Assembly (NCBI GenBank): GCA_016839625.1
Contig: JAEOTY010000021.1
Span: forward strand, 2,263-26,262
Length of the DNA stretch: 24,000 nucleotides
Direction of reading: 5' to 3'
From: Candidatus Hodarchaeota archaeon
GTDB lineage: Archaea; Asgardarchaeota; Heimdallarchaeia; Hodarchaeales; Hodarchaeaceae
A model generated the notes under the pieces. It worked only from the letters and a program-made list of their open reading frames with translations. It searched no databases and was not told where the DNA came from. This document shows positions 7,956 to 24,000 of the stretch, one piece after another; the stretch's first letter is position 1; every line of letters begins with the position of its first letter. The translations under genes and the position numbers were made by a program.

Positions 7956-8002
7956 GAGACTATCCAACCTATATAATTCTTTCCAGATAGAATAAGGAAC
8001 AT

Positions 8003-8320
8003 TTAATGAGCCCAGGGACACGATTGGCCGCTTTCACCATGACATGGTGGTTTATTGGTGTAGTAAAAGTTACACCAAAACTCTTCCTCATCATTTGCAT
8101 TTTTTAGTCTGGTAAATTGAATACAATCTAAGATATATCGCTCACTTTCAATTTCTTCTAAAGTTCCTGGTTTTCCAGGTTGTAAATAGGGACACCGAGT
8201 GGGACAAGGTTCATTCCAGATTTTTAGCTTCAGACAATAATAGTTCTTGTCATTTTCAGAATGAACCAGAAATAGGCAATTATGATAGATTGTGATCCTC
8301 TCCTCGATAATAGGGCTTAA
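8003..8320 (-). other. Stop-to-stop Cys/His-rich ORF (about 105 codons) with no ATG/GTG/TTG start. It is either a metal-binding small protein gene with an unusual start or a start-less relic.
   Basis: Manual translation gives LSPIIEERITIYHNCLFLVHSENDKNYYCLKLKIWNEPCPTRCPYLQPGKPGTLEEIESERYILDCIQFTRLKNANDEEEFWCNFYYTNKPPCHGESGQSCPWAH, ending at TAA (8003-8005). It contains 8 Cys. It is not in the supplied track because it lacks a canonical start. Confidence 0.35.
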
Positions 8321-8329
8321 TTATGAGAA

Positions 8330-8854
8330 TTATTGATTTTTGAAATATTCTATTGCTTCTTTTATTATTTCAATTGCTGTTTCTCGATCCGCCCACCCAA
8401 CTATGTGTGTTGTTTTCCCACGTTCTAGATGCTTGTAAGTGTCAAAAAATTCTTCAATCTCACGTAATGAATGTTTAGGTACAGATTCCAATGATTGTAT
8501 TTCTTCCATCCTTGGATCATCTATAGAGACAGCGACAATCTTGTCGTCTTCGCCCTTTTCATCGTCCATTCGTAATACAGCTACTGGCCGTGCTAGAACA
8601 ATACATCCTGGGATCAGTTCAATTCCCGCACTGAGAAGGAGCAAAACGTCTAGTGGATCTCCATCCTTACAGAGTGTTCTTGGGATGTAACCATAAGCAC
8701 TAGGATATACAACTGACGAATGAAGAATTCTATCAACAAATATTGTGTTATATTCTTTATTAAATTCGTATTTCACCTTAGAACCTAAGGGAATTTCAAT
8801 TCTCACATAAATGTCCTCGGGTGGGTTTGGTCCTGGAGGAATTTCTTCTTTCAC
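8330..8854 (-). CDS. ppa: Inorganic pyrophosphatase, family I
   Basis: The 174-aa product carries YPSAYGYIPRTLCKDGDPLDVLLL and DEKGEDDKIVAV, the classic soluble PPase active-site blocks. Confidence 0.92.
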   Translation of the reverse strand: MKEEIPPGPNPPEDIYVRIEIPLGSKVKYEFNKEYNTIFVDRILHSSVVYPSAYGYIPRTLCKDGDPLDVLLLLSAGIELIPGCIVLARPVAVLRMDDEKGEDDKIVAVSIDDPRMEEIQSLESVPKHSLREIEEFFDTYKHLERGKTTHIVGWADRETAIEIIKEAIEYFKNQ

Positions 8855-8879
8855 ATTCCTTCTTCCTTAGACACAGATC

Positions 8880-9842
8880 TTAATAATCTAGTGGTGGTCC
8901 ATCTCTTATTCCTTGTGGTGTTATATGAAAGACGGCTTCTCTTTCTGCCAATTCGGGTGAATCAAATATTCGGGCTATTCGTGTTGTTCCACGAGATTTC
9001 CTTAGGAGGATCCTATGTGTTGGCCTATGTCCCCAAGCGAATCCTAGTGCTGGTTCTAGGCTACTTGTTCCCGTGAAAATGCTATCTGGATTGCTTAGTA
9101 TCTGATTCGTTGTATATACTGCTAGTTCGTATGATTCGGTTAACCGTTGGAGTGTTTCTGCATGAGCCATCAACATTTGTTGTCTTCGTGGTAGGTTATC
9201 CTTCCCAGGAAATTCTGCCCGAAAATGTGAGGCCATTGAATCGACGATTACTAAGCGTACATTGTTCTTTTGGATTATTTTATCTGCTTTTTCGACAATT
9301 TGGATTTGATGATCCGCATTATACGCTCGGCTCACATAGATATTTTGGAGGAATGCTTTGGGATCATCTGTAAATGAATAGCTCATTTCAGCTACTCTCG
9401 ATGGCGCGAAAGTATTCTCTGTATCAATAAACAGAGCTTTTCCGTCCAGTCCCCCCATTTCTTGAGGTTGTTGGACATTTATGCAAAGTTGGAATGCTAA
9501 TTGTGTTTTTCCAGTAGCGAATGCTCCACTAAATTCTGTTATTGCCCCTACTGTTATTCCTCCCCCAAGAATTTCATCCAGTTGTTGTGAAGATGTTGTT
9601 ATTCGTGGTTTTGCCAGTTTTCTCTCAAATAGTTCTGCTGCTGTAATAGGTTCTGCCATTCCGATCAATTTTCGTGCTTGATTTACCGCTCTTGCAGCGG
9701 ATGTACTACTGATTTCGCATCGGCGAACCACTTCCTCAGGTGGGGTTGTAGCTAATGCCATAATGGTCGGATATTGTTCTTGTAGTCGTGCTGTCGTTTC
9801 TTTTGAGATATTCAAAGAGGAAAAGTCATCTTTCTTCGACAT
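8880..9842 (-). CDS. radA: DNA repair and recombination protein RadA (Rad51/RecA family)
   Basis: The 320-aa product has an N-terminal HhH-type domain followed by an ATPase core. Walker A is GAFATGKTQLAFQL, Walker B is RLVIVDSMASHFR, and LDEILGGGITVGAITEF is also present. Confidence 0.92.
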   Translation of the reverse strand: MSKKDDFSSLNISKETTARLQEQYPTIMALATTPPEEVVRRCEISSTSAARAVNQARKLIGMAEPITAAELFERKLAKPRITTSSQQLDEILGGGITVGAITEFSGAFATGKTQLAFQLCINVQQPQEMGGLDGKALFIDTENTFAPSRVAEMSYSFTDDPKAFLQNIYVSRAYNADHQIQIVEKADKIIQKNNVRLVIVDSMASHFRAEFPGKDNLPRRQQMLMAHAETLQRLTESYELAVYTTNQILSNPDSIFTGTSSLEPALGFAWGHRPTHRILLRKSRGTTRIARIFDSPELAEREAVFHITPQGIRDGPPLDY

Positions 9843-9944: not shown

Positions 9945-10847
9945 TTATTGACGAATCTTTGTAATAATATAATCGACTATACTTTTTGCCACCCGGATTT
10001 TTGGATGAGCGATTTCGAAAGCTTTCCAACCTGGGCACGCATTAACCTCTAGCAAATAAAGGCCCTTGTGAGTTGGGTATAAATCAATTCCTGCAACTTC
10101 TATTTTAACTCTCTCAATAATACGTAAAACCAGTTCTTGGTCTTCTTCGGATAGCTTATGAGGGATACAAGTAGCTCCTTGTGCATAATTCGTCCGCCAT
10201 TCACCTTTTGGTGCTATTCTACGCATGGATCCGAGTATCGTGTTTCCAACTACTAATACTCGAATATCCTCAATTTGATCGGGTGTGTCTTGTGAAGATC
10301 CCCTTAGGTACTCTTGCACCATAACGGGTGTGTCGTACCGTAAAAAAAGGGCATCAATTATTTCTTTGGCTCCGTGTCTACTAGGAGCAAGTATTGTTCC
10401 CGCTCCTTGTGTAGCATTAGGTAATTTAATCACGATTGGAAACTTAAATGACGTCATCAACTTGTCAAACATATAAGAATTGTTAATCAACATTGTTTTT
10501 GGCAGTAGAATACCTGGTATGTCACTTAGAGCCTGGTAACATCGAAATTTATCTCGTACCAAGAACAGGGCTTTGGAAGAAATTGTTGTGGGAATATTCA
10601 TTAATTCAAATTGCTGAAGAATTATTAAACCAATATCGGTTTGCGACCGACCGATTCTTGGGATGATTCCTGCTAAAGCTTTCAGTGTCTGGTTACCTAA
10701 GAATGCATCGATATCAGAAGAATCTATTAAAGGAGAGATAAATCGAGTGGATAGAAACACTCCGTTGATATCTCGTTGATCCATCTCAGCTAAGAGTTGG
10801 GTTGTTGGAAAATACTCACGATTCTTGCTTAGAACACCCAAATTCAT
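9945..10847 (-). CDS. RimK/LysX-family ATP-grasp ligase (alpha-L-glutamate ligase-like)
   Basis: The 300-aa product has ATP-grasp blocks FPIVIKLPNATQGAGTIL, VMVQEYL, DIRVLVVGNTILGSMRRIAPKGEWRTNYAQGA and YLLEVNACPGW. The substrate cannot be inferred from sequence. Confidence 0.8.
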   Translation of the reverse strand: MNLGVLSKNREYFPTTQLLAEMDQRDINGVFLSTRFISPLIDSSDIDAFLGNQTLKALAGIIPRIGRSQTDIGLIILQQFELMNIPTTISSKALFLVRDKFRCYQALSDIPGILLPKTMLINNSYMFDKLMTSFKFPIVIKLPNATQGAGTILAPSRHGAKEIIDALFLRYDTPVMVQEYLRGSSQDTPDQIEDIRVLVVGNTILGSMRRIAPKGEWRTNYAQGATCIPHKLSEEDQELVLRIIERVKIEVAGIDLYPTHKGLYLLEVNACPGWKAFEIAHPKIRVAKSIVDYIITKIRQ

Positions 10848-10954
10848 GGAAATCTCCCGTTTTCAACCTCAGTTAGCTCTATTCATTTTCTAATCTTACT
10901 TTTCCAATAAAAATGTTTTCGGTAATCTCGTAAAGTTTCCTAAGAAAATGATAA

Positions 10955-11062
10955 TGGCCCCGCCCAGATTCGAACTGGGGTCAGAGAATTACACCACGTG
11001 TTTCTATTTTGCTAGGAACACGTTCCAGAGTCCTCTATGATTGACCGCTACACCACGGGGCT
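10955..11062 (-). tRNA. tRNA-Gln (anticodon CUG) with an intron of about 35 nt at the canonical 37/38 position; CCA is not encoded
   Basis: The minus-strand sequence reads AGCCCCG-TG-GTGT-AGCGGTCAA-TCAT-A-GAGGA-CTCTGG-[AACGTGTTCCTAGCAAAATAGAAACACGTGGTGTA]-A-TTCTC-TGAC-CCCAG-TTCGAAT-CTGGG-CGGGGCC-A. The anticodon stem is GAGGA/TTCTC. U33 is present and the T-loop is TTCGAAT. The intron lies at about 10990-11024. Confidence 0.8.
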
Positions 11063-11066
11063 AGTG

Positions 11067-11279
11067 TTATCGAGTAGGACTAGAAAAAGTAAGGATGTCA
11101 TCAATCAATTCAACGTGAGTTATTAACATCCGTCGACAACAATAACGTTGTAGCTCAAAAGAATCAAGAAGTTCATTTGGGTCTTTTCCTTCCTTTACTC
11201 CTTGTTTAAACTCCTCATATAAGTGAGCTATTACCTTACCACAGGTATAGCAACGGATAGGGATCATCATTGCTCTCAT
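11067..11279 (-). CDS. rpoN: DNA-directed RNA polymerase subunit N (Rpo10/Rpb10 homolog)
   Basis: The motifs [13 protein letters not shown]...[16 protein letters not shown] are the diagnostic Zn-binding CxxC...CC signature of RpoN. The true start is probably the Met at 11270 or 11267 (MMIPIRC). Confidence 0.9.
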
Positions 11280-11294
11280 ACACCTCGGATTTGA

Positions 11295-11948
11295 TCACAT
11301 TTCCCCTGCTGGCATCGGTCTACGACCGCGTGGGGCCCTGAAATGTTCCACTCTCAGTTGAGCATCCTTTTCTGGTGTTAATTCTCCCCGTTCTTTTAAA
11401 ACTTCCTTTGTAAGAAGCCAAAAGATCATGGCGAGAGAATTACGGCCTTTGTTATTACAGGGAATTGCCACATCAACATTACTTGTAACGTTGTCAGTGT
11501 CTACCAGTGATACAACAGGGATCCCTACTCGTGCTGCTTCTTTAAGTGCTTGTCTATCAAAATGAGGATCAGTTATTAGCACGGTGGAAGGTTGTAGATA
11601 ATGGTATCGTCCATAAATATTAGGATTAGTAAAGATACCAGGGATAAAACGACCTGTGATTGGAATTGCACCTGCAACTTTGCTAAACATTTCAACGGGG
11701 TAAATCCCATATGCTCGTACGCTACAAGCCACCACCCTGTTTATATTCTGTCGAGCAAGGAATTGAGCAGCAACACGAATACGTTCATCGGTTTTATGGA
11801 CATCCAACACATATAAGCCATCGCTTCGTGTGCGATAAATCGCCCATTCCATGCTTTTCATCCCAGAAGAGGTTCCAATGTGGACGCCAGCTTTCAAATA
11901 ATCTTCTAGGGGGGCAAGTAGCTCTCCTTCTTGCTCAGGGGATAACAT
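11295..11948 (-). CDS. rps2: 30S ribosomal protein uS2 (archaeal/eukaryotic SA type)
   Basis: The 217-aa product contains LEDYLKAGVHIGTSSGMKSMEWAIYRTRSDGLYVLDVHKTDERIRVAAQFL and PVVSLVDTDNVTSNVDVAIPCNNKGRNSLAMIFWLL. Confidence 0.92.
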   Translation of the reverse strand: MLSPEQEGELLAPLEDYLKAGVHIGTSSGMKSMEWAIYRTRSDGLYVLDVHKTDERIRVAAQFLARQNINRVVACSVRAYGIYPVEMFSKVAGAIPITGRFIPGIFTNPNIYGRYHYLQPSTVLITDPHFDRQALKEAARVGIPVVSLVDTDNVTSNVDVAIPCNNKGRNSLAMIFWLLTKEVLKERGELTPEKDAQLRVEHFRAPRGRRPMPAGEM

Positions 11949-12071: not shown

Positions 12072-12845
12072 CTAATCATAAATAAATTGAATAGTCTTCC
12101 GTTCAGAGTCAGCCCAAGAGGCTCGTTCGGATTCTACCATTAGTTTCATGAGCATACGAACATCTGGCGGCGGGAGAGACGACCAAGATTGCTTCATTTT
12201 AACAATATCAAAAGCTGTGACCATATCATAACCGTGTTGAAAGGCATACTGGTATAACTCATCAGTATGGGACTTTAGGGTTTTCCAGTACACCCGAAGT
12301 CGTGTTTGTTCAGAATCCCACCATTTAGCTTTATCAATTTCAACCAAATACTCAGAAATCATAACTAGTTGGGGAAGAGTTAATTTTTTCTTCAGAATAG
12401 AATTTTGGAAAGGATAAACTAGCGCTACTTCTTGTAAATCAAGAATGTGGAAATTTAATACTCGGGCAAAATCAAGTATAAATTCGCCCCACGTAATGAG
12501 CCATTGTTGCTTGAGCTGTGGGTCATCAGGTACCATCCAGCGCCAAGGTTTTTTTACCCACGCAGGCAGAACTGGTTTTACTCGGGGATCAACGACTCCT
12601 GGTTGAAGTGTTGTAGTAAGAGAAGGTTTTACAGTTGATTCAACTGCTGTACGAATCTCAGGTATTGTCTTGTGTTGAAAAGATGGAGTTGTTGAAGGTC
12701 GTGACATTTCAGTGCTTATTTGTGTTAAATCTGGAGATTCTATCTCCGTCTTTTCCTTCGCAACCTCATCTAAGACTGATCCGAGAATATCTATTGATTC
12801 AGTTTTTTTCTTCTCTTTGTCTCTTTTTCGTTGCATTTCAGCCAT
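12072..12845 (-). CDS. vps25: ESCRT-II subunit Vps25-like protein with an N-terminal low-complexity extension of about 100 aa
   Basis: Residues from about 100 to 257 follow the tandem winged-helix pattern of eukaryotic VPS25: PWRWMVPDDPQLKQQWLITWGEFILDFARVLNFHILDLQE...PFQNSILKKKLTLPQLVMISEYLVEIDKAKWWDSEQTRLRVYWKTLKSHTDELYQYAFQHG. Compare human FPPFFTLQPN..TRQKQLAAW..LVL.FCR...LFNN..L.RKL...I..VL..L...GN.EW.D... Confidence 0.75.
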   Translation of the reverse strand: MAEMQRKRDKEKKKTESIDILGSVLDEVAKEKTEIESPDLTQISTEMSRPSTTPSFQHKTIPEIRTAVESTVKPSLTTTLQPGVVDPRVKPVLPAWVKKPWRWMVPDDPQLKQQWLITWGEFILDFARVLNFHILDLQEVALVYPFQNSILKKKLTLPQLVMISEYLVEIDKAKWWDSEQTRLRVYWKTLKSHTDELYQYAFQHGYDMVTAFDIVKMKQSWSSLPPPDVRMLMKLMVESERASWADSERKTIQFIYD

Positions 12846-12887
12846 GAAATCCCAACTTACTTTTCAAAAACAAATAAAAGGGTCAGA

Positions 12888-14036
12888 TTAACCCCCAAAT
12901 TGGTCTTTCCACTCTTCAAAACGCGTCAATTCTTTGGGTGACACTGAGGGTTTGATACTTTCCATACCTACAAGAAAATCCTTTGAACTTGGGGCTCGAG
13001 GTTGAATGGTTGTATCTTTTAGGGCTCCATCAGCGTCGAGCTCCCTGATCGGAGACATCAATGCTTCACGACAGAGTAGAGCAATATCTGCAGCTGTGTA
13101 TCCAGCAGTATACTTTGATAATTCCTCAAAACTCACATCAGGATCTAGATTCACGCCACGAGTATGAATCTGAAACATTTTTTCTCGGGCTCCTGTTGTT
13201 GGCAACGTTACATATACCCGTCTTTCAAATCGTCGGCGCATTGCTGCATCTATATCCCAGGGTGTGTTTGTTGCCCCAACTGTCACCAGTAGTTCATCTC
13301 CTGTACCAAATCCCTCAACTGCTTGTAATAATTGTGTTTTTACACGACGCATTGCTTCTCCTTCAGAACTGCCTCCTCTTGCTCCTGCTAGTGAGTCAAT
13401 TTCGTCAAAAAATATTATAGAAGGTGCTTCTTCAGTCGCCCGCTCATATAATTCCTGTACTAACTTTTCTGATTCTCCTAACCATTTGCTAATCAAGTTC
13501 GCTGCGCTGACAGAAAAAAATGTTGAGTCTACTTCTGATGCAACGGCCTTGCAGAGATAGGTTTTTCCACATCCAGGGGGGCCGTACATTAAAATTCCCT
13601 TCCATGGTTTCCGAGCACCTTTGAATAAATCGGGCCTAGACATAGGGAGGATGATGGCTTCTCGTAAGGCGCGTTTTGCACCTTCCATACCTGCGACATC
13701 TTCCCATTTAACATTGGGTTTTTCACGAACAATTACACTTGATATTGCTCCAGATATTTCATCTTCTGCTTCCGGTGATGCTGAGGCTGAAGAGCTTGTC
13801 TTACCTTCAGAAGAACCTGGTATACCACGAATTTCTTTTACACGAAGAATATATTCCATGGCTTTTTGATAGTACATATTCTTCATATTTGGGTCTTCAG
13901 TAAAATTAATCAGCTTTTGTAACTGTTCTGCAGCACTTACATAATAGCGTACAGCTTGTTGAGCTTGGCCACCTTGATCGAGTTTATATGCCATGGCTGC
14001 ATTCTTTTTGGCAGCATCAAACAATGGTGAACTCAT
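12888..14036 (-). CDS. vps4: Vps4/CdvC-type AAA+ ATPase with an N-terminal MIT domain
   Basis: The MIT-like three-helix N-terminus is AMAYKLDQGGQAQQAVRYYVSAAEQLQKL...YYQKAMEYILRVKEIR. Walker A is ILMYGPPGCGKTYL and Walker B is IIFFDEIDSL. The second region of homology is TNTPWDIDAAMRRRFERR. The product is 382 aa. Confidence 0.92.
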   Translation of the reverse strand: MSSPLFDAAKKNAAMAYKLDQGGQAQQAVRYYVSAAEQLQKLINFTEDPNMKNMYYQKAMEYILRVKEIRGIPGSSEGKTSSSASASPEAEDEISGAISSVIVREKPNVKWEDVAGMEGAKRALREAIILPMSRPDLFKGARKPWKGILMYGPPGCGKTYLCKAVASEVDSTFFSVSAANLISKWLGESEKLVQELYERATEEAPSIIFFDEIDSLAGARGGSSEGEAMRRVKTQLLQAVEGFGTGDELLVTVGATNTPWDIDAAMRRRFERRVYVTLPTTGAREKMFQIHTRGVNLDPDVSFEELSKYTAGYTAADIALLCREALMSPIRELDADGALKDTTIQPRAPSSKDFLVGMESIKPSVSPKELTRFEEWKDQFGG

Positions 14037-14104
14037 GTTTTAATCTCCAGAAAATACCTAATAATCAATGATAGAGAAAACCGAAGGGGGAGCTGCGCGT
14101 CCAT

Positions 14105-14719
14105 CTACCCTTTCTTGATTTTCTCCAATTCTTTTTGTAGTTCTTGGGATCGAATGTCAGGTGAAGGTAGTCCAAAATCAGCCGCAGCTGCCTTAGAAGC
14201 ACTTAATTCTCCTATTATCTTGTCTACCATTTCATCTTCCTCAATATCGGAGGTCATCATCTCAAACCCTTCATCCATGGCTTCAGTAGCCATGTCAACC
14301 CTTTCGGTTTCGATCTCCATCTGTTCAAGGACACCTTCTAGTTGAGGAATCTTAAGCTGTCTATTCATGGCGTGAAGTGTTTTCACTAGTCCCTTAAGAT
14401 CCTGACCTATGGCTTGAGTGGCTGCAGCTTGTTCTAGCTTGAATTTAATTCCTTTTACTCGACTCGCCATTTGTTGACATCCACGGGCCATGGTTCGATT
14501 TTTAGCTACATCTTTCGCTAATAGTCTTGCGGTCGACATATCGCCTTGTTCGATGGATCTCTCGACTTCCTTGAGCATCCGTTTTTCTTCTTTAATGAGT
14601 TTTCTCCGCTGACGATCCATTCGTCTTTCTACCATGCGAAGTCGACTAATCCATCTTCGTGTGGATTTTGCTCCACTACCTCCGCCTTTCAACCATTGTC
14701 CGAATTTATCGAAAACCAT
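14105..14719 (-). CDS. ESCRT-III (Snf7 family) protein, Vps2/24/46 (CHMP2/3/1)-like
   Basis: The 204-aa product has a basic N-terminal helical hairpin (RRMDRQRRKLIKEEKRMLKEVERSIEQGDMSTARLLAKDVAKNR), an acidic C-terminal half, and a terminal amphipathic helix SQELQKELEKIKKG that fits the MIM1 pattern L-x3-L-x2-[LI]-K. Confidence 0.85.
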   Translation of the reverse strand: MVFDKFGQWLKGGGSGAKSTRRWISRLRMVERRMDRQRRKLIKEEKRMLKEVERSIEQGDMSTARLLAKDVAKNRTMARGCQQMASRVKGIKFKLEQAAATQAIGQDLKGLVKTLHAMNRQLKIPQLEGVLEQMEIETERVDMATEAMDEGFEMMTSDIEEDEMVDKIIGELSASKAAAADFGLPSPDIRSQELQKELEKIKKG

Positions 14720-14721
14720 GT

Positions 14722-15396
14722 CTAGGACCTCAATCCTTCTTCAATCTGTCGTCTCATTTCATCTAGCTTCTTTTTATCAGCTTCACGCTTGGCAGGAGCT
14801 GCTGTTTCAGTCACAGTAGTGGTAGGAGTGGATGTTTCGATATTTGCTGCTGGTAATGAGCCTGACATTTCAGCTTCCAGCTCAGCCATTTGCATAGAGA
14901 TACGATCATCTGCCTCGACATCCATACCAATTTCTGTAATTGAGGTATCAGTCAAGGCTTCATCCATATCTGAAACCATCTCTATGGACTCTTCCAAAGA
15001 CATCATGACTTCTTCTGTTTTTTCAGGAGAAGCAGCTTCAACGTTAGCATCAATAGCCGTTTGGGCATGCGATAAGGTGTCTGTAAGAGTGACGTTATCC
15101 GCAGAGATGTCTAACGTATCAATCGTTCTTTGAAGGTTTGCAATTTTATTGTAAGTGTTTGTAACCTGAGTTAAATAGAGTTCACGGCGTTTTAATGCCT
15201 GTTGAGCTCCTAGTTTATTTCCAGCTTTCAACAGAGTTCGAGCAAGCTCATATTGTTCATTCGATTGTCTTTGATAGTTTTTAATTTTGACTTCCATTTG
15301 ATTGATGGTTCTCTTTAATTTGGCTTTCGTTTCAGTCGAACTACTAGGTTTTTTTCCGGTTAAAAAACCTCTAAATCTTTTCAAGGGTAAATTCAT
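14722..15396 (-). CDS. ESCRT-III (Snf7 family) protein, Vps20/32/60 (CHMP6/4/5)-like
   Basis: The 224-aa product has a basic N-terminal half with the Snf7-like block ARTLLKAGNKLGAQQALKRRELYLTQVTNTYNKIANLQRTIDTLD, a strongly acidic C-terminal half, and a C-terminal helix KKKLDEMRRQIEEGLRS. Its stop lies 2 nt before the start of the next ESCRT-III gene. Confidence 0.8.
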   Translation of the reverse strand: MNLPLKRFRGFLTGKKPSSSTETKAKLKRTINQMEVKIKNYQRQSNEQYELARTLLKAGNKLGAQQALKRRELYLTQVTNTYNKIANLQRTIDTLDISADNVTLTDTLSHAQTAIDANVEAASPEKTEEVMMSLEESIEMVSDMDEALTDTSITEIGMDVEADDRISMQMAELEAEMSGSLPAANIETSTPTTTVTETAAPAKREADKKKLDEMRRQIEEGLRS

Positions 15397-15600
15397 CTCA
15401 CTAAATTATTAATAAATAATTATTATTCTTATTAATTTAAAGTCTTTACTTGTTCTTCAGATTTGTTATTTAAAAAAACTTCCCATCCAAAACTCTAAAA
15501 GTCCCTTTATGAGTTTAAAAAATTGAATACTTATCTATTCACACCTAGAATGTTTCGCTATCAGAATAGAAGGGAGTGTACCAACGTTTTAATGAGGTGA

Positions 15601-16317
15601 TCAAACCCCTGGAAAAGAAATGACCATTCCATCTAGAGTTTCAGTTTTAATTGCAATTTTCTGTTGGATTAGTTTTGTCAGAGCTTGATTCACACGTTCT
15701 AATGTCCATGATGTCTCTTGAACCAACTCGGTTAAACCAATTTCTCCTTGAAATCGAGCTGCTAGTTCCAGTATAACTTGGTGGTCTTTGGTTAGATTTG
15801 GATCTACAAAAACAACCACTTTCATGCCAGCTAATTGACGGATTTCATGAATCATACCATTTTTTTCTAATAAACTTAGAGCAGTTGTGATATCAGCGAT
15901 TGACGTTGTAATGCCTCGACTCTCATCTGTTAATTTTAACACTAATTCAGATACACTTAGAAGACCACCAGTTTGATTTCTCACTTGTTTTCCAATTTCA
16001 AGTATCCTGATTGCCAAAAAATTGTGATATTCATCCGTTCCCTTCAAACGCTGAATGAAACCTGATTTTTTACCGACTTCATAAATCCCGAGTGCACGTG
16101 GAAGACCGACTTCTTCCCTAAGATTCATTAAACGTTTTGAGAGTTCGGGATTTTTCTTTATATCAGCTTGATACTTTTTTTCTAACGTTTGTAACTCAGT
16201 GTGAAGCTCTTGGACTTTCTTGCTCATAGTATCTAAGGATTTCAGTGCCATTTCTGCACCTTTCCGCTTCATTTCAGCTTCCCTGGTGAGCTTCTCTTCA
16301 ATTCGTCGTAATCCCAT
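15601..16317 (-). CDS. vps22: ESCRT-II subunit Vps22/36-like protein (EAP30 domain)
   Basis: The 238-aa product is collinear with human SNF8/EAP30. Matching blocks are KYQADIKKNPELSKRLMNLREEVGLPRALG (vs KHKQEIRKNPEFRVQFQDMCATIGVDPLASG), YHNFLAIRILEIGKQVRNQTGGLLSVSEL (vs [28 protein letters not shown]) and DHQVILELAA (vs DHTVVLQLAE). Confidence 0.85.
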   Translation of the reverse strand: MGLRRIEEKLTREAEMKRKGAEMALKSLDTMSKKVQELHTELQTLEKKYQADIKKNPELSKRLMNLREEVGLPRALGIYEVGKKSGFIQRLKGTDEYHNFLAIRILEIGKQVRNQTGGLLSVSELVLKLTDESRGITTSIADITTALSLLEKNGMIHEIRQLAGMKVVVFVDPNLTKDHQVILELAARFQGEIGLTELVQETSWTLERVNQALTKLIQQKIAIKTETLDGMVISFPGV

Positions 16318-16555
16318 GAGAATTCCTATCTTTTCTTCTTTGATGTCAAGATTAATTGGATTTACTTTATTTATAATTTTATATTTTCCGATACCGGATA
16401 ATCATGCTAAGGCTAATAATGCTGCTTACAAGGATGAATAATGATTCTACTTAACACATTCTGGAAAACAGATGAAATCTAATAATACCATATTATGTCC
16501 AGATTTTGTATGCTTATAAACATCAAACTGAATTACGTACCTACTGGGATTATAC
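16318..16555. promoter_or_regulatory. AT-rich divergent intergenic region, probably holding promoters for the Vps22/36-like gene (-) and the Zn-finger gene (+)
   Basis: The 238-nt non-coding gap lies between divergent starts. TATA-like TTATAAA at 16514-16520 sits 36-42 nt upstream of the + ATG. An A/T block at 16366-16386 (minus-strand reading ATATAAAATTATAAATAAA) sits 50-70 nt upstream of the minus ATG. There is no experimental support. Confidence 0.35.
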
Positions 16556-17893
16556 ATGGTGCTCGAGCCGGCTTCCGGGAGATCAAACCTGTTTTGTTCA
16601 TTTTGTGGTACTATGGTTCGTGAATTAGAATCCCAGAAATGTTTAGACTGTGGTGCAGCATTCTGCCAGCAATGCGCCTCCCGCTTACAAATCAATGGAA
16701 TCCAACTTAAATGTCCATGTGGTTCAGCCAATATCGAATCTGGATCTCCAGAACAAAATTCACAGACTCAAACTTTGGAACATATTTTTAGTTTGAAACG
16801 CTCTTTAAAACAAGTAGGTTATCGTCCCGTAATTATGCTTAAACGAACTGGCCATCTTGAATCAAGATTGAGAGCTTTTCGAAAACAATTTCTTATCCCA
16901 GGAAATCAGATTGATAAAATATTCCTCGACACCAAAAAGATTGAAAATTTTATACTATCAGAGTTTCAGGAATATTCTTCCAAATTAAGTCGACTATATC
17001 GTAGTGTAATGGGCCTAGATTCCTCATTCATCGATCATCGCAATCTTTCTCTTCAACTAACGCTTTTTCATAAGCAGGTTGATAGTTTTGATCAAACAGT
17101 TCAAGACAAACTTCAACCAATTTTTAGTTTAATTGAGCAATTAGAGGATAAGTGCGATCAGTTTGACGAGATGTCACGACATCTTGGACGGTGCTTTGAT
17201 GCTTTTGTTTTTGTACCTGGTGAACTTGCTATTGGTTTTTTCTCTAATGTTGAATTAAGGAACAATCGGATAAGAAAGTTTACAATAGACTTGTTAATTA
17301 CTACTGACCGAATTGTAATGTTTTGTAAAAAGAGGACCAAAATAATTGGTCAAAAAACAATAATTTATGATGAATTTCCTCCTGAAGATCTGATTGATGT
17401 TCAAAAGACAAATGCGGGTTTCTTAAAACGTGATAAGCTTCAAATAACAACCATTAAGCATGATTATGAATTACGTGCGAATTTCGAGACTTTAATGCGT
17501 ATCTTTGATGCTCTCCAATTGAGTTACTACGGCCGTCCAAGTGAAATCTATATTCATGAACCTTTTCGAGATTGGTCTTCAGAGATTTATCAAGAAAAAA
17601 TACTCTCTTACCTTAATTTCCAAACTAAAGTTAGTGGGTCTTCCAATCCAACCAATGACCATGAAAGAGAACCTGATTTTGTAACAGGGGTTCTCGACGA
17701 CCGTCTTCGTGATCTGCGTCTTCGCAAACTAGCAAATGAAAAGGCATTGCAAGAACTTAAGGAGGGGCGGAAAAAAGTAGCTAGTCGAGATTATTTCGAC
17801 CTAGTTAGACAATTCGAATTAGAACTAGCCAAAATAAATGAAGCGATGACAGAATTACTAGTCCGAACAGGAAAAACAAATCTTTTGAATTAA
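16556..17893 (+). CDS. Uncharacterised ESCRT-cluster protein with an N-terminal 8-Cys RING-like zinc finger, a central PH/GRAM(GLUE)-like region, and a C-terminal coiled coil with a steadiness-box-like motif
   Basis: The product is 445 aa. Cys spacing is C14-x2-C17-x11-C29-x2-C32-x4-C37-x2-C40-x12-C53-x-C55. Residues about 218-321 (GELAIGFFSNVELRNNRIRKFTIDLLITTDRIVMFCKK...DLIDVQKTNAGFLKRDKLQITTIKHDYELRANFETLMRIFDAL) follow the PH/GRAM strand pattern. Residues 378-435 have coiled-coil heptads ending in KKVASRDYFDLVRQFELELAKI. Confidence 0.7.
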   Translation: MVLEPASGRSNLFCSFCGTMVRELESQKCLDCGAAFCQQCASRLQINGIQLKCPCGSANIESGSPEQNSQTQTLEHIFSLKRSLKQVGYRPVIMLKRTGHLESRLRAFRKQFLIPGNQIDKIFLDTKKIENFILSEFQEYSSKLSRLYRSVMGLDSSFIDHRNLSLQLTLFHKQVDSFDQTVQDKLQPIFSLIEQLEDKCDQFDEMSRHLGRCFDAFVFVPGELAIGFFSNVELRNNRIRKFTIDLLITTDRIVMFCKKRTKIIGQKTIIYDEFPPEDLIDVQKTNAGFLKRDKLQITTIKHDYELRANFETLMRIFDALQLSYYGRPSEIYIHEPFRDWSSEIYQEKILSYLNFQTKVSGSSNPTNDHEREPDFVTGVLDDRLRDLRLRKLANEKALQELKEGRKKVASRDYFDLVRQFELELAKINEAMTELLVRTGKTNLLN

Positions 17894-17906
17894 ATCAATG
17901 ATATAT

Positions 17907-18536
17907 TCAGAGATTCGCCAACTCTCTACGAAAATCTGAAAGCCATCGTGCTGTTTGTAATTCTAGCTTTTTCAATTCATCTTGTCTTAATAGCTGGCCT
18001 GGTTTCTGTCTATCCATCCACTTAATCCACTCATCGATATCTCTTGTTACCCAATGATTAGACCCATAGACATGAGCTTCAGTTAAAATTGCATGGAGCT
18101 CATCTAAATATGGTAGAATCCGATCTACGGTAGCAATGGCTTCTAACCGAAGAAGGTCCAATACCTCGATGGCGTTGGCAACAAACTCGGCAGCAATCTT
18201 TGGTAATTTTTTAATTTGACTATAATCAATACGGTTTCGAGCATTATCATCTGTTCCCTCTGTTATCCGGAGTTTTTCAAGACCGTGGGGATATTGTTGA
18301 TCGATTTTTTCTTCCCGAATGAAATCATCTAAATCAAATTGGTAGGTTTCTAGCTTTGCTCGGATTGCAACAATGGTCGTTAAGAGATTTTTATGCTGTT
18401 TATGAAAGATATTCGGATCTAACTCGCCTTTTTCGTATGTCCGAGATAAAAGATCAAGAGTCCCAATAGTCGCAAATAATTGCCCTTCCAATTCCCAACG
18501 TTTTGTTAGATTTGGAGGAAAAGTCATTAATTTCAT
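17907..18536 (-). CDS. vps28: ESCRT-I subunit Vps28-like protein
   Basis: The 209-aa product has an N-terminal core LFATIGTLDLLSRTYEKGELDPNIFHKQHKNLL. Its C-terminal four-helix-bundle block AAEFVANAIEVLDLLRLEAIATVDRILPYLDELHAIL...EWIKWMDRQKPGQLLRQDELKKLELQTARWLSDFRREL is collinear with eukaryotic VPS28 (...FIT.MD.LKL......I.P.L.DL...L....WL..L..M.ASDEL.E.Q.RQL.FDLE.AY..F...L). Confidence 0.85.
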   Translation of the reverse strand: MKLMTFPPNLTKRWELEGQLFATIGTLDLLSRTYEKGELDPNIFHKQHKNLLTTIVAIRAKLETYQFDLDDFIREEKIDQQYPHGLEKLRITEGTDDNARNRIDYSQIKKLPKIAAEFVANAIEVLDLLRLEAIATVDRILPYLDELHAILTEAHVYGSNHWVTRDIDEWIKWMDRQKPGQLLRQDELKKLELQTARWLSDFRRELANL

Positions 18537-18537
18537 C

Positions 18538-19329
18538 CTATCCCAAGTATTCCGTTTGTTTTCGAGCTATATAGAGTTCCTTGGAGTACTTTTTATATAA
18601 ACGTGAGTATTCGAAAATTGAGATCTCACCAGAGGCATAACGGTCTTCAAGTGCCGCTAATAGCTCTGAGATAGCAATACGTTCTGATTCGATGCTATCT
18701 TGGGTTGAAAGCCTTTTGCCCTCATCACTATCTGAGGGTTGTGCTTGAGTCATTTGTTGTGCATGAAATCGAGCCAATTCTTCATCTTTTTCTTGTATTT
18801 GTTTAGTTAATGAGGATAACTCTGTTCTTAGCGCTGTTGTTTCTGCAAATACTGTCTTATTTGGAGACACTGGAGGTGTTTCTATTATACGTGCTACTGT
18901 ATCGCGAACAGATTTAGCAGTTTCTCCTTTAGGAGTGGGAGGCACTCTAGACATCAGATTTTTTAGTGCAATGATCACTTGATAGAGATGAAACTCAGCA
19001 CGCCAATTATCCAAGATTCGTAATTGAACAAAACCATCATCATCAATGTTAGGGTGATCCATCCATCCCACTGCTGTTACTACAGGAGGAACGTTAGGAA
19101 AGTATTCTGGAAGAAATATTTCAAATGTAAACATGTTACGGCCACGATTGGTGGTATATGTCAAGGTTCCTTTCCATCTAGCCAAGGAATCTCCCACAGG
19201 ATTAAAACCAAAAGCTGCTGAATTAGAATATACCAGTTGTGCCTCTCGAGCTAAAATAAAATCTTTATCCATATTTGTGGCTCCTTTCTTCAAATTAAAT
19301 ACTGAATCATTAATGTATTTAAATTTCAC
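18538..19329 (-). CDS. ESCRT-I Vps23/Tsg101-like protein: UEV (inactive E2 variant) domain, coiled-coil stalk and C-terminal steadiness box
   Basis: The UBC-fold blocks are WKGTLTYTTNRGRNMFTFEIFLPEYFPNVPPVV and DHPNIDDDGFVQLRILDNW. The position of the E2 catalytic Cys (HPN...G.IC.DIL) is Gln102 (codon 19024-19026). The tail LLAALEDRYASGEISIFEYSRLYKKYSKELYIARK resembles the Tsg101 steadiness box (L..AL..G.I.L..FLK.VR.LSR.QF). An alternative start is Met20 (19272). The stop lies 1 nt from the Vps28-like start. Confidence 0.8.
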   Translation of the reverse strand: MKFKYINDSVFNLKKGATNMDKDFILAREAQLVYSNSAAFGFNPVGDSLARWKGTLTYTTNRGRNMFTFEIFLPEYFPNVPPVVTAVGWMDHPNIDDDGFVQLRILDNWRAEFHLYQVIIALKNLMSRVPPTPKGETAKSVRDTVARIIETPPVSPNKTVFAETTALRTELSSLTKQIQEKDEELARFHAQQMTQAQPSDSDEGKRLSTQDSIESERIAISELLAALEDRYASGEISIFEYSRLYKKYSKELYIARKQTEYLG

Positions 19330-19490: not shown

Positions 19491-20711
19491 TTATTTTTTC
19501 CCCCTAGGTTTTTTCACAGTAGTTAAAAAATCTATAATAGCTTCTCCTAACAACTCGAATGCTTGTTCAACATTCTGGCCTGTTTTGGCACTTGTAGATA
19601 GAAAGTAAATCTTGAAACCTCGGTATTGTTCAGCAATTTGAGACAGTCTTTCAACAAATACTTTCGCTTTATTTTCAGACACACAAGGGATTCCCGAGCT
19701 AGATAAGTCTACTTTGTTTCCCAAAACAACTAACGGGACAGGACCATGCCCATTGTTCCGCCAAAGCTCATTCAGCCATTTGGGTATGTTTTGAAAGCTT
19801 TCTGGACGAGTTACATCAAAAACAAGTAATGCACCTACACTGGCAGAATAATAAGCTTTCCGAACGTTATTAAAACGAGGTTGACCTGCCAGATCCCAGA
19901 TCAAGTATTTGATTTGTTTACCACCACTATATACTATATCAGATGTTTTAGCAGCAAGATCGGCTCCTATTGTCATTTGATAGTCATCACGAAATCCTTC
20001 GCCTAAGTAACGTCTCCTAATGGACGTTTTACCAACTGCACCATCTCCAATTAAAATAACCTTTAACGTATGATGTTCTTGAACAAAAGTTGCTTTTACT
20101 GACGTGATAGCTTCATCAATGGCTGCACGTAATTCTGGATTGGTCTTAATATTTTGATCAGTATGATAATTCAGGATTTGTACAATTTGAACGGCTAACG
20201 TACCCACCATATCTCGTGATGTTCCCTTAGATGTCACTATGGCGATAACCAACTCTCCAATGACGAAGAAATGAATTGTTTGAGATTCGAGAGTAAGAAC
20301 CTCCAACAATTCGCCAAGATTGTAGCGGACATAACTTTTTATTGCATAAAAAATGAAGTTCATAGATTCCTTATAGTCAATTTTATCGGAGAGCTGATAA
20401 TTAAACAATAATTGCCCATTGTTCATAAAACATGAAATTAAGAAAATTTCTTCAGTCTTTTTTGCTCGTTCTAATCCAAATTTTTTGAAATCCGCTATCT
20501 GATCCTCTTCAGTTTTTTCAGCTTGAGCATAAGCTTCTTCAATGATGTTCAAATAATCGCCCCGTCCCGATAATGCCTTTTCAAGATCTACTCGAACTTT
20601 CAGTTCGAACTCCTCCATTTCGTCAGGGCGTTGATCATTTGTGATCTTGGTTTCAAGTGTTTTTGGCTCTTTCTTTTCGTTTGTCTCGAAAGAAGAGTCT
20701 TTTTCTTCCAT
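19491..20711 (-). CDS. Fusion protein with an acidic N-terminal region, a roadblock/LC7(longin-like) domain and a Rab/Ras-like small GTPase domain
   Basis: The GTPase motifs are G1 GDGAVGKTS, switch I YQMTIGADL, G3 WDLAGQ, G4 GNKVDL and G5 STSAKTG (aa about 215-400). Residues about 88-182 (IFLISCFMNNGQLLFNY...HFFVIGELVIAIVTSKGTSRDMVGTLAVQIVQIL) show a roadblock/MglB-like alpha-beta pattern. Confidence 0.85.
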   Translation of the reverse strand: MEEKDSSFETNEKKEPKTLETKITNDQRPDEMEEFELKVRVDLEKALSGRGDYLNIIEEAYAQAEKTEEDQIADFKKFGLERAKKTEEIFLISCFMNNGQLLFNYQLSDKIDYKESMNFIFYAIKSYVRYNLGELLEVLTLESQTIHFFVIGELVIAIVTSKGTSRDMVGTLAVQIVQILNYHTDQNIKTNPELRAAIDEAITSVKATFVQEHHTLKVILIGDGAVGKTSIRRRYLGEGFRDDYQMTIGADLAAKTSDIVYSGGKQIKYLIWDLAGQPRFNNVRKAYYSASVGALLVFDVTRPESFQNIPKWLNELWRNNGHGPVPLVVLGNKVDLSSSGIPCVSENKAKVFVERLSQIAEQYRGFKIYFLSTSAKTGQNVEQAFELLGEAIIDFLTTVKKPRGKK

Positions 20712-20976: not shown

Positions 20977-21954
20977 ATGGGTGAATTATTAGGACCTTTA
21001 GATGATCAAATCATTATTTTATTGCAAACATTCAGTCCACTCCTTGATCTAATTTTTGGATTAATCACTTTTTTTGGAGATGAACTATTTATAATCGCAA
21101 TTATAGTTATTATTTTCTTCTGTATCGATAAGGAGATAGCAATTCGATCAGCTTTTTTGGTTGTTTTTACAGGTTTCATAACGACTTCAGCAAAAGGAGT
21201 ATTTGGTCTTAAGAGACCATACATCGTTAATGATGCAGAGATACAAGGAATCCCTGATATTATAGGACAACTTCCAGAAGATTATACTTTTCCAAGTGGT
21301 CATTCATCCAATGCGGGATCATTCTGGACATATTTAGCCACACGTTGGCGTAATCCTAGTTTTTGGGCCATTGCCATATTCATGATTGTAATTATCCCTC
21401 TTTCACGTAGCTATCTAGGTGTACATTGGCCAACTGATATAATTGTGGGAGCTTTGCTAGGAATTTCAGTTGCTTTACTGTTTACTTATTTTTTACCCAA
21501 GATAGAAGTTTTTGTTAATAAAACCTCACCCAGAACTCTTGGAATATTTGCTATAGTTATTCCTATTTTAGGGGTTATTATTTCTTACATGCTTACAATC
21601 GGAATGGGTAATGAAATAGAACACGCTGATCCTAGTTCATTAGGGGGGCTTTTTCTTGGCTTAGCTGTTGGTTATATCCTTGAAAATCGTTATGTAAATT
21701 TGAAAGTGAAAGAATTTCGATCGAACAAGAAAATACTTGTCTATCGGGGAATTGCAGGGGTTATTATTATCCTAGCATTGTACTTTGGTATGAGTGCTAT
21801 TTTTAAAATTCTTTTTGAAGGTTTTCCCCTTGAATATATCTCACGATTCATCAGATATGCAATTCTAGCATTTTTTGGTATCTTTTGTCTCCCATGGTTA
21901 TTTTCTACAATTGAACAAAAATTATTATTGGAGCCTGGAGGTTTAGCGGAATAG
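20977..21954 (+). CDS. PAP2-superfamily membrane phosphatase (phosphatidic acid or polyprenyl-diphosphate phosphatase type)
   Basis: All three PAP2 signature motifs are present: KGVFGLKRPY (KxxxxxxRP), FPSGHSSNAG (PSGH) and SRSYLGVHWPTDIIVGALLG (SRxxxxxHxxxD). There are multiple TM helices, and extra C-terminal TMs follow. Confidence 0.85.
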   Translation: MGELLGPLDDQIIILLQTFSPLLDLIFGLITFFGDELFIIAIIVIIFFCIDKEIAIRSAFLVVFTGFITTSAKGVFGLKRPYIVNDAEIQGIPDIIGQLPEDYTFPSGHSSNAGSFWTYLATRWRNPSFWAIAIFMIVIIPLSRSYLGVHWPTDIIVGALLGISVALLFTYFLPKIEVFVNKTSPRTLGIFAIVIPILGVIISYMLTIGMGNEIEHADPSSLGGLFLGLAVGYILENRYVNLKVKEFRSNKKILVYRGIAGVIIILALYFGMSAIFKILFEGFPLEYISRFIRYAILAFFGIFCLPWLFSTIEQKLLLEPGGLAE

Positions 21955-22156
21955 TAAAGTTAATCTAATTTCTGATACACTTATATTCAATCCTAGCATC
22001 CTTTCAATTATATTATTTACTTTGATAAGTTGGCATTAATCTGTTGAAAAAATAACAGGATTACTCACTATTCATAAATACAGTCACAAATATGGTCAAT
22101 GTTGATATACTTATGTGAGAAAAGAATTTCTCTCTAAAACATATGATGTGAAGAAT

Positions 22157-22930
22157 ATGTCTGAGTCAGAATCCCTTATCTGTCCCAATTGTAGTGAAAG
22201 AAGCCCAGGAGGTTATATTCTTTGTCCATATTGTGGTTTCGATTTGACAAAAATTGTACGGGCAAGAGAACGTGTACGTGTTAATTTTAGAGAAAGATTT
22301 TCACGGATTTGGAGGAGTCTTTTTGACCCGAGACAGAGTCAAAGGCTTTTTAGGGAGATCGGAGTCAATCCTGATCGCACAGGAGCACTATTAGTTTTAT
22401 TTCTTCTTTCAGTAGCTTATGGCTTACGACTTGGCGCACTAGTACTAAAAGCTGGCTTTGATACTGGTGCTTCGTGGCATGATTTGCATTTTTGGTATTT
22501 ATTGATTTCTCCTTGGTTTCTAGCGATTGGTTTTGTTTTTCTGGCACTATTTGGATGGTTTATCAGTAGTTGCGTTGTTTGGTTTATCGCAACCCGACTT
22601 GGTGGCAAAGCGAGTTTTAGAGACACTCAAGGAATTGTTGGTTATTCGTTCGGGCCTTTGATTACTGCTTCACTAATAATTAATCTAATTCTGGCCAGTC
22701 AAGCCCTGATACCAATTCTAGGAATCAATCTAAGTTCTATCACCCCCACAACCGTGGATCAGTTAGTAATTCTTGAGCTAATCAATATTCCCTTTATGGG
22801 ACTTGTTGCTTACCATTGCGGAAACGGTATTCGTTCGGCTCATCTACTCAATAATTATTTCTCATATGGTATTAGCGGCGGTGTAACCCTCTTATATCTC
22901 GTAATTTTCTTTTTACCAGTCATTTTTTAG
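22157..22930 (+). CDS. Membrane protein with an N-terminal zinc ribbon and a Yip1-like multi-TM domain
   Basis: The track ORF begins at GTG 22115, but ATG at 22157 (MSESESLICPNC...) is the likelier start. The zinc ribbon is CPNC-x12-CPYC. About 5 TM helices follow, with a loop and TM layout reminiscent of Yip1-domain proteins. That family call is tentative. Confidence 0.55.
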   Translation: MSESESLICPNCSERSPGGYILCPYCGFDLTKIVRARERVRVNFRERFSRIWRSLFDPRQSQRLFREIGVNPDRTGALLVLFLLSVAYGLRLGALVLKAGFDTGASWHDLHFWYLLISPWFLAIGFVFLALFGWFISSCVVWFIATRLGGKASFRDTQGIVGYSFGPLITASLIINLILASQALIPILGINLSSITPTTVDQLVILELINIPFMGLVAYHCGNGIRSAHLLNNYFSYGISGGVTLLYLVIFFLPVIF

Positions 22931-23004: not shown

Positions 23005-24000
23005 TTAATCAAAAATAATCTCGAATTTCAAGGGGGATGATAAAGTCGGATCAACCACGCGAAAAATAGCCCCTGATGTAAAGATTTTTCCAACTCTCTC
23101 GCTTGTAATCGCTAATTTTTGAGTTTGAAACAGGATTGCCATTTCAGGTCCTAGATTGAATGAATATTGGAGCTGTATAACAAAGTCCTTTAGCTGTTGA
23201 TCACTAGGAGAACGGATTGGAATTGCTTTGAGTTGGTAGCGAGGTGAGCACACAATGCAATCTTCTCGACGTTCAAGAGGAACAGAAGTAAATATTCCCG
23301 CCTTCCCATCCCAAAAAAGATATTCTTTCAAAGGTGGAAGGCCAAGAATGATTTTAAGAGCCTCCTGAACCATTAATCCACCAATAACGAAGGAAACACT
23401 CGATACATAAGGAATGAATTCTTCCTCCTTCTCCTCAGGATGGATTTCTTTTCTTACTTCCCCAAAGGGGGTACAGGCTTTTTGAAGCTCTTCTTCAGGA
23501 ATTAAAGATTGACATTCCAAACAGGGGCTTTTCTGAGGAATAACTACTTGGAGGTTTCCAAGAAAACTATAAATACCTCCAGATACCAATGGAATGTGTG
23601 ATCCAATGGCAAAGGAGTTGATCCAACGTCGTGTTTGGAATGTATCTAAACCATCGAGAATAACTGTCGATGTCTCTAAAGTATGTCTTGGGGCTTTTTC
23701 AATGGGCATGTTCAATTTGTTTATGTGAATTTCGGGGTTTATTTCATGGAGGATCTGAGCAGAAATGTCCACTTTAGCCTTTCCAACATCTGTTGGCCTA
23801 AAAAATAATTGTCTATTCAAATTACTCATTTCAATTGTATCAAAATCAACTAGAATAAGCGTTCCAACTCCTGTCATTGCTAATGAGGCAGCAGCAACCG
23901 TACCCAATGCCCCAAGACCAACTAGTGTTACAGTACTTTGCAGGAGCTTTTCTTGATCCCAATTTTCAATCAACAGTTGGCGATTATACCGATCACTCAT
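23005..24000 (-). CDS. E1-like ubiquitin/Ubl-activating enzyme (ThiF/MoeB/UBA adenylation fold) with a C-terminal extension of about 78 aa
   Basis: The product starts MSDRYNRQLLI...VTLVGLGALGTVAA (GxGxxG) and contains VDFDTIEMSNLNRQ. Two CxxC pairs (C160LEC, C248IVC) form the structural Zn site. A crossover-loop Cys is at KAC176TPFG. The ATG sits exactly at the window edge (23998-24000). An extra C-terminal region spans aa 254-331. Confidence 0.85.
   Translation of the reverse strand: MSDRYNRQLLIENWDQEKLLQSTVTLVGLGALGTVAAASLAMTGVGTLILVDFDTIEMSNLNRQLFFRPTDVGKAKVDISAQILHEINPEIHINKLNMPIEKAPRHTLETSTVILDGLDTFQTRRWINSFAIGSHIPLVSGGIYSFLGNLQVVIPQKSPCLECQSLIPEEELQKACTPFGEVRKEIHPEEKEEEFIPYVSSVSFVIGGLMVQEALKIILGLPPLKEYLFWDGKAGIFTSVPLERREDCIVCSPRYQLKAIPIRSPSDQQLKDFVIQLQYSFNLGPEMAILFQTQKLAITSERVGKIFTSGAIFRVVDPTLSSPLKFEIIFD

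Follow-up and report, generated by a model that had tools for sequence, protein, structure and literature searches.

A chromosomal ubiquitin-ESCRT locus of a Hodarchaeales archaeon, with an eighth conserved gene as candidate ESCRT-I-associated adaptor

We analysed a stretch of 24,000 nucleotides from contig JAEOTY010000021.1 (the window), which carries a near-complete eukaryote-type ESCRT-I/-II/-III plus Vps4 gene cluster, native to an Asgard chromosome. Seven open reading frames (ORFs) of ESCRT type, all on the minus strand, lie within positions 12072-19329 (ORF coordinates re-checked), and all seven have Pfam matches. This much had been claimed, for a span of 7.3 kb, in a first-pass annotation made from the sequence. 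The same span also holds a gene for a 445-amino-acid (aa) protein on the plus strand (16556-17893), which that annotation did not mention, and counting it the cluster has eight co-located genes. Overall, the region is very probably a chromosomal ubiquitin-ESCRT locus of a Hodarchaeales archaeon (Heimdallarchaeia, Asgard), for which a mechanism can be proposed by homology.

Spang et al. 2015 and Zaremba-Niedzwiedzka et al. 2017 were reportedly the first to note Asgard ubiquitin-ESCRT clusters. The ESCRT-I/II/III-Vps4 clusters are central evidence for a pre-eukaryotic origin of the ubiquitin-dependent membrane-remodelling machinery of eukaryotes, a point already in the literature, and they have been analysed and partly tested biochemically (PMC9192718; PMC10936438; bioRxiv 10.1101/2023.07.25.550441). 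The window is one further Hodarchaeales example of this published cluster type. The only increment here is the attention given to the eighth gene as a candidate for the Vps36-GLUE and Vps37/Mvb12 roles, and its architecture was anticipated in the literature.

Results

Seven ESCRT-type genes on the minus strand

Profile searches bore out the assignments to ESCRT-I and to ESCRT-II: all four genes other than those of ESCRT-III and Vps4 gave significant matches (Pfam ESCRT-II, EAP30, VPS28 and UQ_con). Coordinates, strands, lengths and family matches are collected in Table 1.

In the ESCRT-I group, the UEV ORF (18538-19329) matched UQ_con at 9.7e-14 and the UEV family at 3.3e-4, the latter under the curated cut-off. 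When it is aligned with E2 enzymes, HPN...GFVQLRIL stands against GNICLDIL, with Gln in the window at the position of the catalytic Cys, and none of the 13 UEV homologs has Cys there. This UBC-fold protein is therefore a UEV. Further downstream, the Vps23_core family (PF09454) matched eight of the 13 C-termini in the UEV family (best 1.2e-5); a PDB profile search with the UEV C-terminus returned no Vps23 chain. The companion Vps28 is full-length, and its single-sequence PDB search gave spurious (TALE) repeat-protein matches only. Over the 3' end of its gene, Rfam reports its one match, a weak SNORD65 match (17905-17985, minus strand; 22.5 bits versus a gathering threshold of 41, E 0.9), which we judge to be due to chance.

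The two ESCRT-II genes encode a Vps25-like and a Vps22-like protein. The first has a tandem winged-helix core at about residues 98-255, after an N-terminal extension of about 100 aa, and the PDB chains it resembles most are 7PB9 ("Tandem WH domains of Vps25", 2e-15) and human Vps25 (3CUQ_C, 1.1e-3). The second, of the EAP30 family, has an N-terminal helical region and two winged helices. Its PDB matches include human SNF8/Vps22 (6.3e-18) and yeast Vps22 (7.8e-8) but no chain of Vps36, and as it is without a PH/GLUE domain, it is not a Vps36 ortholog. Indeed Vps36, in which GLUE/PH is fused to winged helices, was not found in the window: there is one EAP30-family gene, and the sole PH domain is in the separate plus-strand protein. 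At the N-terminus of the Vps25-like protein (12543-12845, minus strand), a basic motif MAEMQRKR.K.EKKK..S(I/V)D.L..VL.EV is kept in the family alignment and is followed by a variable linker rich in Pro, Ser and Thr; the motif could be a membrane- or partner-binding helix.

The two Snf7-family proteins were classed from their best PDB relatives, without a tree. ESCRT-IIIA is closest to CHMP2A (1.8e-18), CHMP1B, CHMP3 and Vps24, which places it in the Vps2/24/46 group. ESCRT-IIIB is closest to ESCRT-IIIB of Heimdallarchaeota AB_125 (9FTL, 8.3e-29) and to yeast Snf7 (4e-4), which places it in the Vps20/32/60 group; both placements agree with the first-pass annotation. ESCRT-IIIA ends in an invariant C-terminal helix, SQELQKELEKIKK, and ESCRT-IIIB in a conserved C-terminus, KKKLDEMRRQIEEGLRS. 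The C-terminal helices of both are near-invariant among homologs and are candidate MIT-interacting motifs.

Four Pfam families match the Vps4 protein above their cut-offs (AAA 1.7e-39, MIT 2.4e-08, Vps4_C 1.9e-07, and AAA_lid_3), and the PDB match to yeast Vps4 is near full-length (residues 16-344, 7e-90). The ESCRT-III and Vps4 proteins are also homologous to CdvB and CdvC, and they share the MIT-ESCRT-III logic of the Cdv system (CdvA/CdvB/CdvC) of TACK archaea. The cluster could be primarily a Cdv-like cell-division machine, as in those archaea, rather than one for ubiquitin-directed sorting and vesicle scission. CdvC is in fact the best named NCBIfam model for the Vps4 protein, ESCRT-IIIA has a weak CdvB match, and 3 of 13 UEV-protein C-termini have weak CdvA-like coiled-coil matches. 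However, the CdvC score of 294 bits is far under the equivalog cut-off of 650, so that the window's Vps4 is not a CdvC equivalog, and no ORF scanned has a CdvA family match. The window differs from the Cdv system also by its ESCRT-I and ESCRT-II genes, by a UEV of the ubiquitin-binding type, and by linkage to genes for E1, ubiquitin, a Rab-like GTPase and a Yip1-domain protein. These features favour cargo sorting, and we consider a primarily divisional machine unlikely; the two roles are mutually compatible.

An eighth conserved gene on the plus strand

The first-pass annotation held the Vps36 GLUE domain and Vps37/Mvb12 to be missing. No gene was matched for Vps36, and none of the cluster ORFs matched Mod_r, Vps37 or Mvb12 (for the ESCRT-I subunits Vps37 and Mvb12/UBAP1). 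What it overlooked is the plus-strand gene between EAP30 and Vps28, whose product has zinc ribbons, a coiled coil, a GLUE-like PH domain and a terminal hairpin. The protein has no Pfam or NCBIfam family match, and public records for its family read "hypothetical" or "zinc ribbon domain-containing".

At the N-terminus, eight cysteines in the pairs C14/17, C29/32, C37/40 and C53/55 are conserved in homologs; this zinc-ribbon module is predicted, from the cysteine pattern, to form two zinc sites. An AlphaFold2 model computed from a 21-sequence alignment (predicted local distance difference test, pLDDT, 76.6) has three long helices (69-108, 117-151 and 161-212), a seven-strand sandwich with a capping helix at about 225-325, which is a PH domain, and, after a disordered linker, a C-terminal helical hairpin (374-438). 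Modelled alone from a 12-row alignment, the PH domain reached a pLDDT of 85.8 and a predicted template modelling score of 0.79. In a Foldseek search, the top PDB match of this isolated domain was the yeast Vps36 GLUE domain (2CAY; E 7e-5, template modelling score (TM) 0.66), and human EAP45 GLUE was at rank 15. All listed PDB matches at E <= 0.001 were PH, PH-like or PH-containing, except for one uncharacterised Leishmania domain. A profile of the PH region found nothing significant among PDB sequences, so that structure comparison alone gave matches.

On these models, the plus-strand protein is the evident candidate for the "missing" Vps36-GLUE and Vps37/Mvb12 roles. Its coiled coil and hairpin are the sole part of the cluster that could play the Vps37/Mvb12 one.

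The family is small, with 21 representatives in 1.84 billion clusters, and sequence searches traced it in the Heimdall group only. Word-indexed protein searches with family alignments added almost no further distant relatives, and a broad family alignment was too divergent for a genome scan. An exact match to the protein was found in a short contig assembled from run SRR14699982, and the protein is 92% identical in the nearest NCBI genome. In every Hodarchaeales locus that spans EAP30 and Vps28, the gene lies between the two in the same orientation. Relatives of 23-34% identity are still convergent with Vps28-UEV, one of them in a rearranged cluster.

Proposed mechanism and weighing of the evidence

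In other Asgard lineages, Hatano et al. 2022 demonstrated interactions between UEV and ubiquitin, Vps23 and Vps28, Vps25 and ESCRT-IIIB, and Vps4 and ESCRT-III, as well as the Vps22 homodimer; they also noted that ESCRT-I and ESCRT-II must be bridged by an undetermined factor (PMC9192718). The steps proposed for the window follow from homology and from this published Asgard biochemistry. The Cys-less UEV domain would bind ubiquitin on cargo. The UEV C-terminal hairpin would pair with the N-terminus of Vps28, and probably also with the hairpin of the plus-strand protein, to give an ESCRT-I-like headpiece. The plus-strand protein would supply a coiled-coil stalk, a GLUE-like PH domain and zinc ribbons for contacts with the membrane, ubiquitin or the Vps28 C-terminal domain; as one subunit, it would cover the jobs of eukaryotic Vps36-GLUE and Vps37/Mvb12. 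Vps28 would couple to the Vps22 homodimer and Vps25, Vps25 would nucleate ESCRT-IIIB, and ESCRT-IIIA would co-assemble. Finally, the MIT domain of Vps4 would bind the conserved ESCRT-III C-terminal helices, and disassembly of the polymer would lead to membrane scission.

Several points weigh against this scheme, whose steps are all drawn from homology; the process served may be vesicle budding, division or repair. The window's own UEV C-terminus matches Vps23_core weakly (E 0.12, 12.8 bits versus a cut-off of 26.8). For the plus-strand protein, GLUE leads the other PH domains found by Foldseek by a small margin (E 7e-5 versus 1.6e-4 for Exo84), and for this reason homology of its PH domain to GLUE is a lead, not a result. 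A steadiness-box identity of its hairpin found no Pfam match in the 14 members scanned, the hairpin profile had no match to Vps23, Vps37 or Vps28 in the PDB, and its profile-profile comparison with the UEV-Vps23 C-terminus gave an insignificant probability of about 1%. Moreover, the family does not adjoin ESCRT-I genes in Heimdall LC_3 and in one other genome (a Logan contig).

As its hairpin has no sequence match to a steadiness box and the gene is found away from ESCRT-I in those two genomes, the plus-strand protein could be something other than an ESCRT subunit: a regulator of the neighbouring small GTPase, like DH-PH exchange factors, or an unrelated passenger gene. The Rab-like GTPase and Yip1 genes are conserved neighbours, and the top Foldseek matches of the whole model are DH-PH RhoGEF tandems. 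These matches, however, have TM values of 0.19-0.27 and root-mean-square deviations of 15-23 Å, which suggests a shared layout of long helices and then a PH domain, not a DH fold, and the RhoGEF likeness was rejected on the TM values. The isolated PH domain points instead to Vps36 GLUE, the position between EAP30 and Vps28 and the convergence with Vps28-UEV are kept as described above, even in the rearranged cluster, and an independent study proposed proteins of this architecture as ESCRT-I (PMC10936438). We therefore find a role outside ESCRT quite improbable, and keep the ESCRT-I-associated adaptor as the candidate function.

Gene order and chromosomal origin

A scan of species-representative genomes gave 20 syntenic loci. 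The order RadA-RimK-RpoN-uS2-Vps25-Vps4-ESCRT-IIIA-ESCRT-IIIB-EAP30-(plus-strand gene)-Vps28-UEV-GTPase-PAP2-Yip1-ThiF, that is 16 genes, is identical in each locus of sufficient length. PAP2 is its sole variable position, being inverted in some loci and unmatched in four. Two closed chromosomes, CP070695.1 and CP070760.1, are among these loci, and so is the B3_Heim genome (L025), whose cluster Hatano et al. 2022 plotted in their synteny figure (PMC9192718). Metagenome-assembled genomes with homologs of the cluster proteins are labelled Hodarchaeota, Hodarchaeales or Heimdallarchaeota, with a few evident mislabels.

Within the window, G+C content drifts slightly, between 0.33 and 0.43. The cluster genes are intron-less and closely packed. 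Re-measured gaps are as first annotated: 2 nt between the ESCRT-III genes, 68 and 42 nt on the two sides of vps4, and 1 nt between UEV and Vps28, or 10 nt if Vps28 starts at its second Met, which is the choice of other gene callers. No transposase or integrase family was matched among the ORFs scanned, and the flanks are archaeal (RadA, RpoN, uS2 and an intron-containing tRNA), two further points on which the earlier reading was correct. Eukaryotic contamination, a chimeric assembly or a mobile island has virtually no chance of being the source of the ESCRT genes: nothing was found in favour of these readings, and the synteny, which includes the archaeal flanks and the closed chromosomes, rules them out. 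The intron-less, tightly spaced genes and the lack of a transposase or integrase match among the ORFs scanned also count against them. Native chromosome, as first proposed, is what remains.

Comparison with known systems

Against the published Asgard clusters, we see no difference of substance; the DNA comes from a further Hodarchaeales species. They have the same UEV-Vps23, Vps28, Vps22/EAP30, Vps25, ESCRT-IIIA/-IIIB and Vps4, linked to E1 and ubiquitin. Heimdall AB_125 has a UEV-Vps23/Vps28 fusion, whereas the window has two separate genes. A 2023 preprint already includes Yip1 and a Rab-like GTPase in the Hodarchaeia cluster (bioRxiv 10.1101/2023.07.25.550441). The first-pass statement that ESCRT-I and ESCRT-II homologs are restricted to Asgard archaea is outdated, since Makarova et al. 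2024 describe structurally similar ESCRT-I/II-like proteins in archaea outside Asgard (PMC10936438).

The same authors define an Asgard-specific family, "Znr_CC_PH_SB" (asCOG cog.011556), in which zinc ribbons and a coiled coil are combined with a PH domain and a steadiness box. They predict that its members act within ESCRT-I and, by analogy to Vps36, bind membranes through the PH domain (PMC10936438). Compared by this published description, the plus-strand protein likewise begins with zinc ribbons, continues with a coiled coil and a PH domain and ends in a helical hairpin, and it too is encoded among ESCRT genes; on its modelled architecture it is a candidate member. It differs in size and in zinc content, the listed Lokiarchaeum member having about 650 aa and the family three zinc ribbons, versus 445 aa, eight Cys and two predicted zinc sites here. 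Profile searches starting from the plus-strand family reached Heimdall-group proteins only, and no Lokiarchaeial ones. Its LC_3 relative (P0060; L005, MDVS01000006.1) does not bear the cog.011556 label in the portion of Table S2 of PMC10936438 available to us, so that the published asCOG may not take in the Heimdall-group family. That LC_3 gene is on the same contig as the LC_3 EAP30-Vps20-Vps24-Vps4-Vps25 cluster, about 36 kb off.

With the Vps36 GLUE domain (yeast 2CAY, human EAP45 2HTH) the protein shares the PH fold of seven strands plus a C-terminal helix, the ESCRT context, and zinc-binding modules alongside. In contrast to Vps36, its PH domain is not fused to a winged-helix ESCRT-II core and its zinc ribbons are N-terminal, not NZF fingers inserted in the PH domain; sequence identity is about 12%.

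Hodarchaeales are placed closest to eukaryotes in some phylogenomic analyses. In this group, the complete set, including the little-studied zinc-ribbon/PH/hairpin protein, is found in one compact, strictly conserved locus that adjoins E1, ubiquitin, Rab-like GTPase and Yip1 genes. It provides a parts list for reconstituting how ESCRT-I couples to ESCRT-II and to membranes without Vps36 or Vps37. A tentative scenario, which we hold possible but rather doubtful, is that the closest archaeal relatives of eukaryotes keep a membrane/ubiquitin-binding GLUE module, stalk and headpiece hairpin in one ESCRT-I-associated subunit. In eukaryotes these parts would later have been separated: GLUE would have moved to Vps36, a paralog of Vps22, and Vps37/Mvb12 would have received the stalk and hairpin.

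Gene starts and transcription units

TATA-like boxes are found 42-66 nt upstream of the UEV (ATG 19272), ESCRT-IIIB, EAP30 and plus-strand genes, and none in the 68- and 42-nt gaps around vps4. Together with gene spacing, these boxes weakly suggest, in DNA that is AT-rich, four transcription units: UEV-Vps28; the plus-strand gene; EAP30; and ESCRT-IIIB-ESCRT-IIIA-Vps4-Vps25. The proposal agrees with the published Asgard strand pattern, which holds in the window: vps25 has the same direction as vps4 and ESCRT-III, and vps22 the same as vps23 and vps28.

The start first given for the UEV gene, GTG 19329 (263 aa), is probably in error, and ATG 19272 is most likely the true one: homologs start at the corresponding Met, and the product called by other gene finders has 244 aa. 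The GTG itself falls inside a TATA-like box, AAATTTAAATA, some 50 nt upstream of this conserved ATG, so that the stretch 19273-19329 is more likely promoter than coding.

Neighbouring genes and minor observations

Table 1. Genes of the cluster and its flanks (window positions)
Feature	Position	Strand	Length	Description
RadA	8880-9842			Flank
RimK-type ATP-grasp protein	9945-10847			Flank
tRNA-Lys(CTT)	10954..11063	-		35-nt intron; ARAGORN with introns allowed
RpoN	11067-11279			Flank
uS2	11295-11948			Flank
Vps25-like ESCRT-II subunit	12072..12845	-	257 aa	Pfam ESCRT-II PF05871 3.4e-14
Vps4 ATPase	12888..14036	-	382 aa	MIT domain, single AAA+ module, Vps4 C-terminal helix
ESCRT-IIIA	14105..14719	-	204 aa	Snf7 family, Vps2/24/46 group; Pfam Snf7 2.7e-18
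ESCRT-IIIB	14722..15396	-	224 aa	Snf7 family, Vps20/32/60 group; Pfam Snf7 2e-11
Vps22-like EAP30 ESCRT-II subunit	15601..16317	-	238 aa	Pfam EAP30 6.5e-17, profile positions 2-213/219
Eighth conserved gene	16556..17893	+	445 aa	Between EAP30 and Vps28; candidate ESCRT-I-associated membrane/ubiquitin adaptor
Vps28, ESCRT-I subunit	17907..18536	-	209 aa (206 aa from second Met)	Full-length; Pfam VPS28 1.7e-12, profile positions 3-177/188
UEV-Vps23-like ESCRT-I subunit	18538..19272	-	244 aa	UBC fold without catalytic Cys, coiled-coil stalk, C-terminal steadiness-box-like hairpin
Ras/Rab-like GTPase-domain protein	19491..20711	-	406 aa	N-terminal domain of about 200 aa, then GTPase domain; Pfam Ras 1.3e-41, residues 217-392
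PAP2-family membrane phosphatase	20977..21954	+		Pfam PAP2 2.7e-22; in most syntenic loci
Yip1-domain membrane protein	22115..22930	+		N-terminal zinc ribbon; Pfam Yip1 6.6e-12; syntenic
ThiF-family E1-like ubiquitin-activating enzyme	23005..24000	-		Pfam ThiF 1.8e-59; conserved neighbour

The GTPase gene is directly upstream of the UEV gene in all Hodarchaeales loci that reach that far, and the N-terminal part of its product is without a Pfam family match. A ubiquitin gene (PF00240) is next after ThiF in three of the syntenic loci (L001, L004 and L007), a position that falls outside the window. The tRNA was recovered by the intron-aware ARAGORN run; ARAGORN with default settings and Rfam (gathering threshold and E <= 1) found no tRNA in the window.

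Further leftward, the interval between PAC2 and RadA (5913-8880) varies by genome, with a TPR protein in L001 and a penicillin amidase in L029. In the window it includes a 263-aa ORF (7164-7955, plus strand) without Pfam match, with a hydrophobic C-terminal part, which is not among the called genes of L001 and L029. A pyridoxal-dependent decarboxylase at 6145-7016 (minus strand) lacks its N-terminal half, and the rest is divided between two ORFs that overlap (Pfam profile positions 190-297 and 308-374); a truncated pseudogene with a frameshift is the probable reading. Two TPR-repeat proteins are encoded at 3226-4980 (plus strand), and a minus-strand ORF of more than 1020 aa (1-3060) extends past the window's first position; its product has a subtilase (Peptidase_S8) domain and a hydrophobic segment at the N-terminus.

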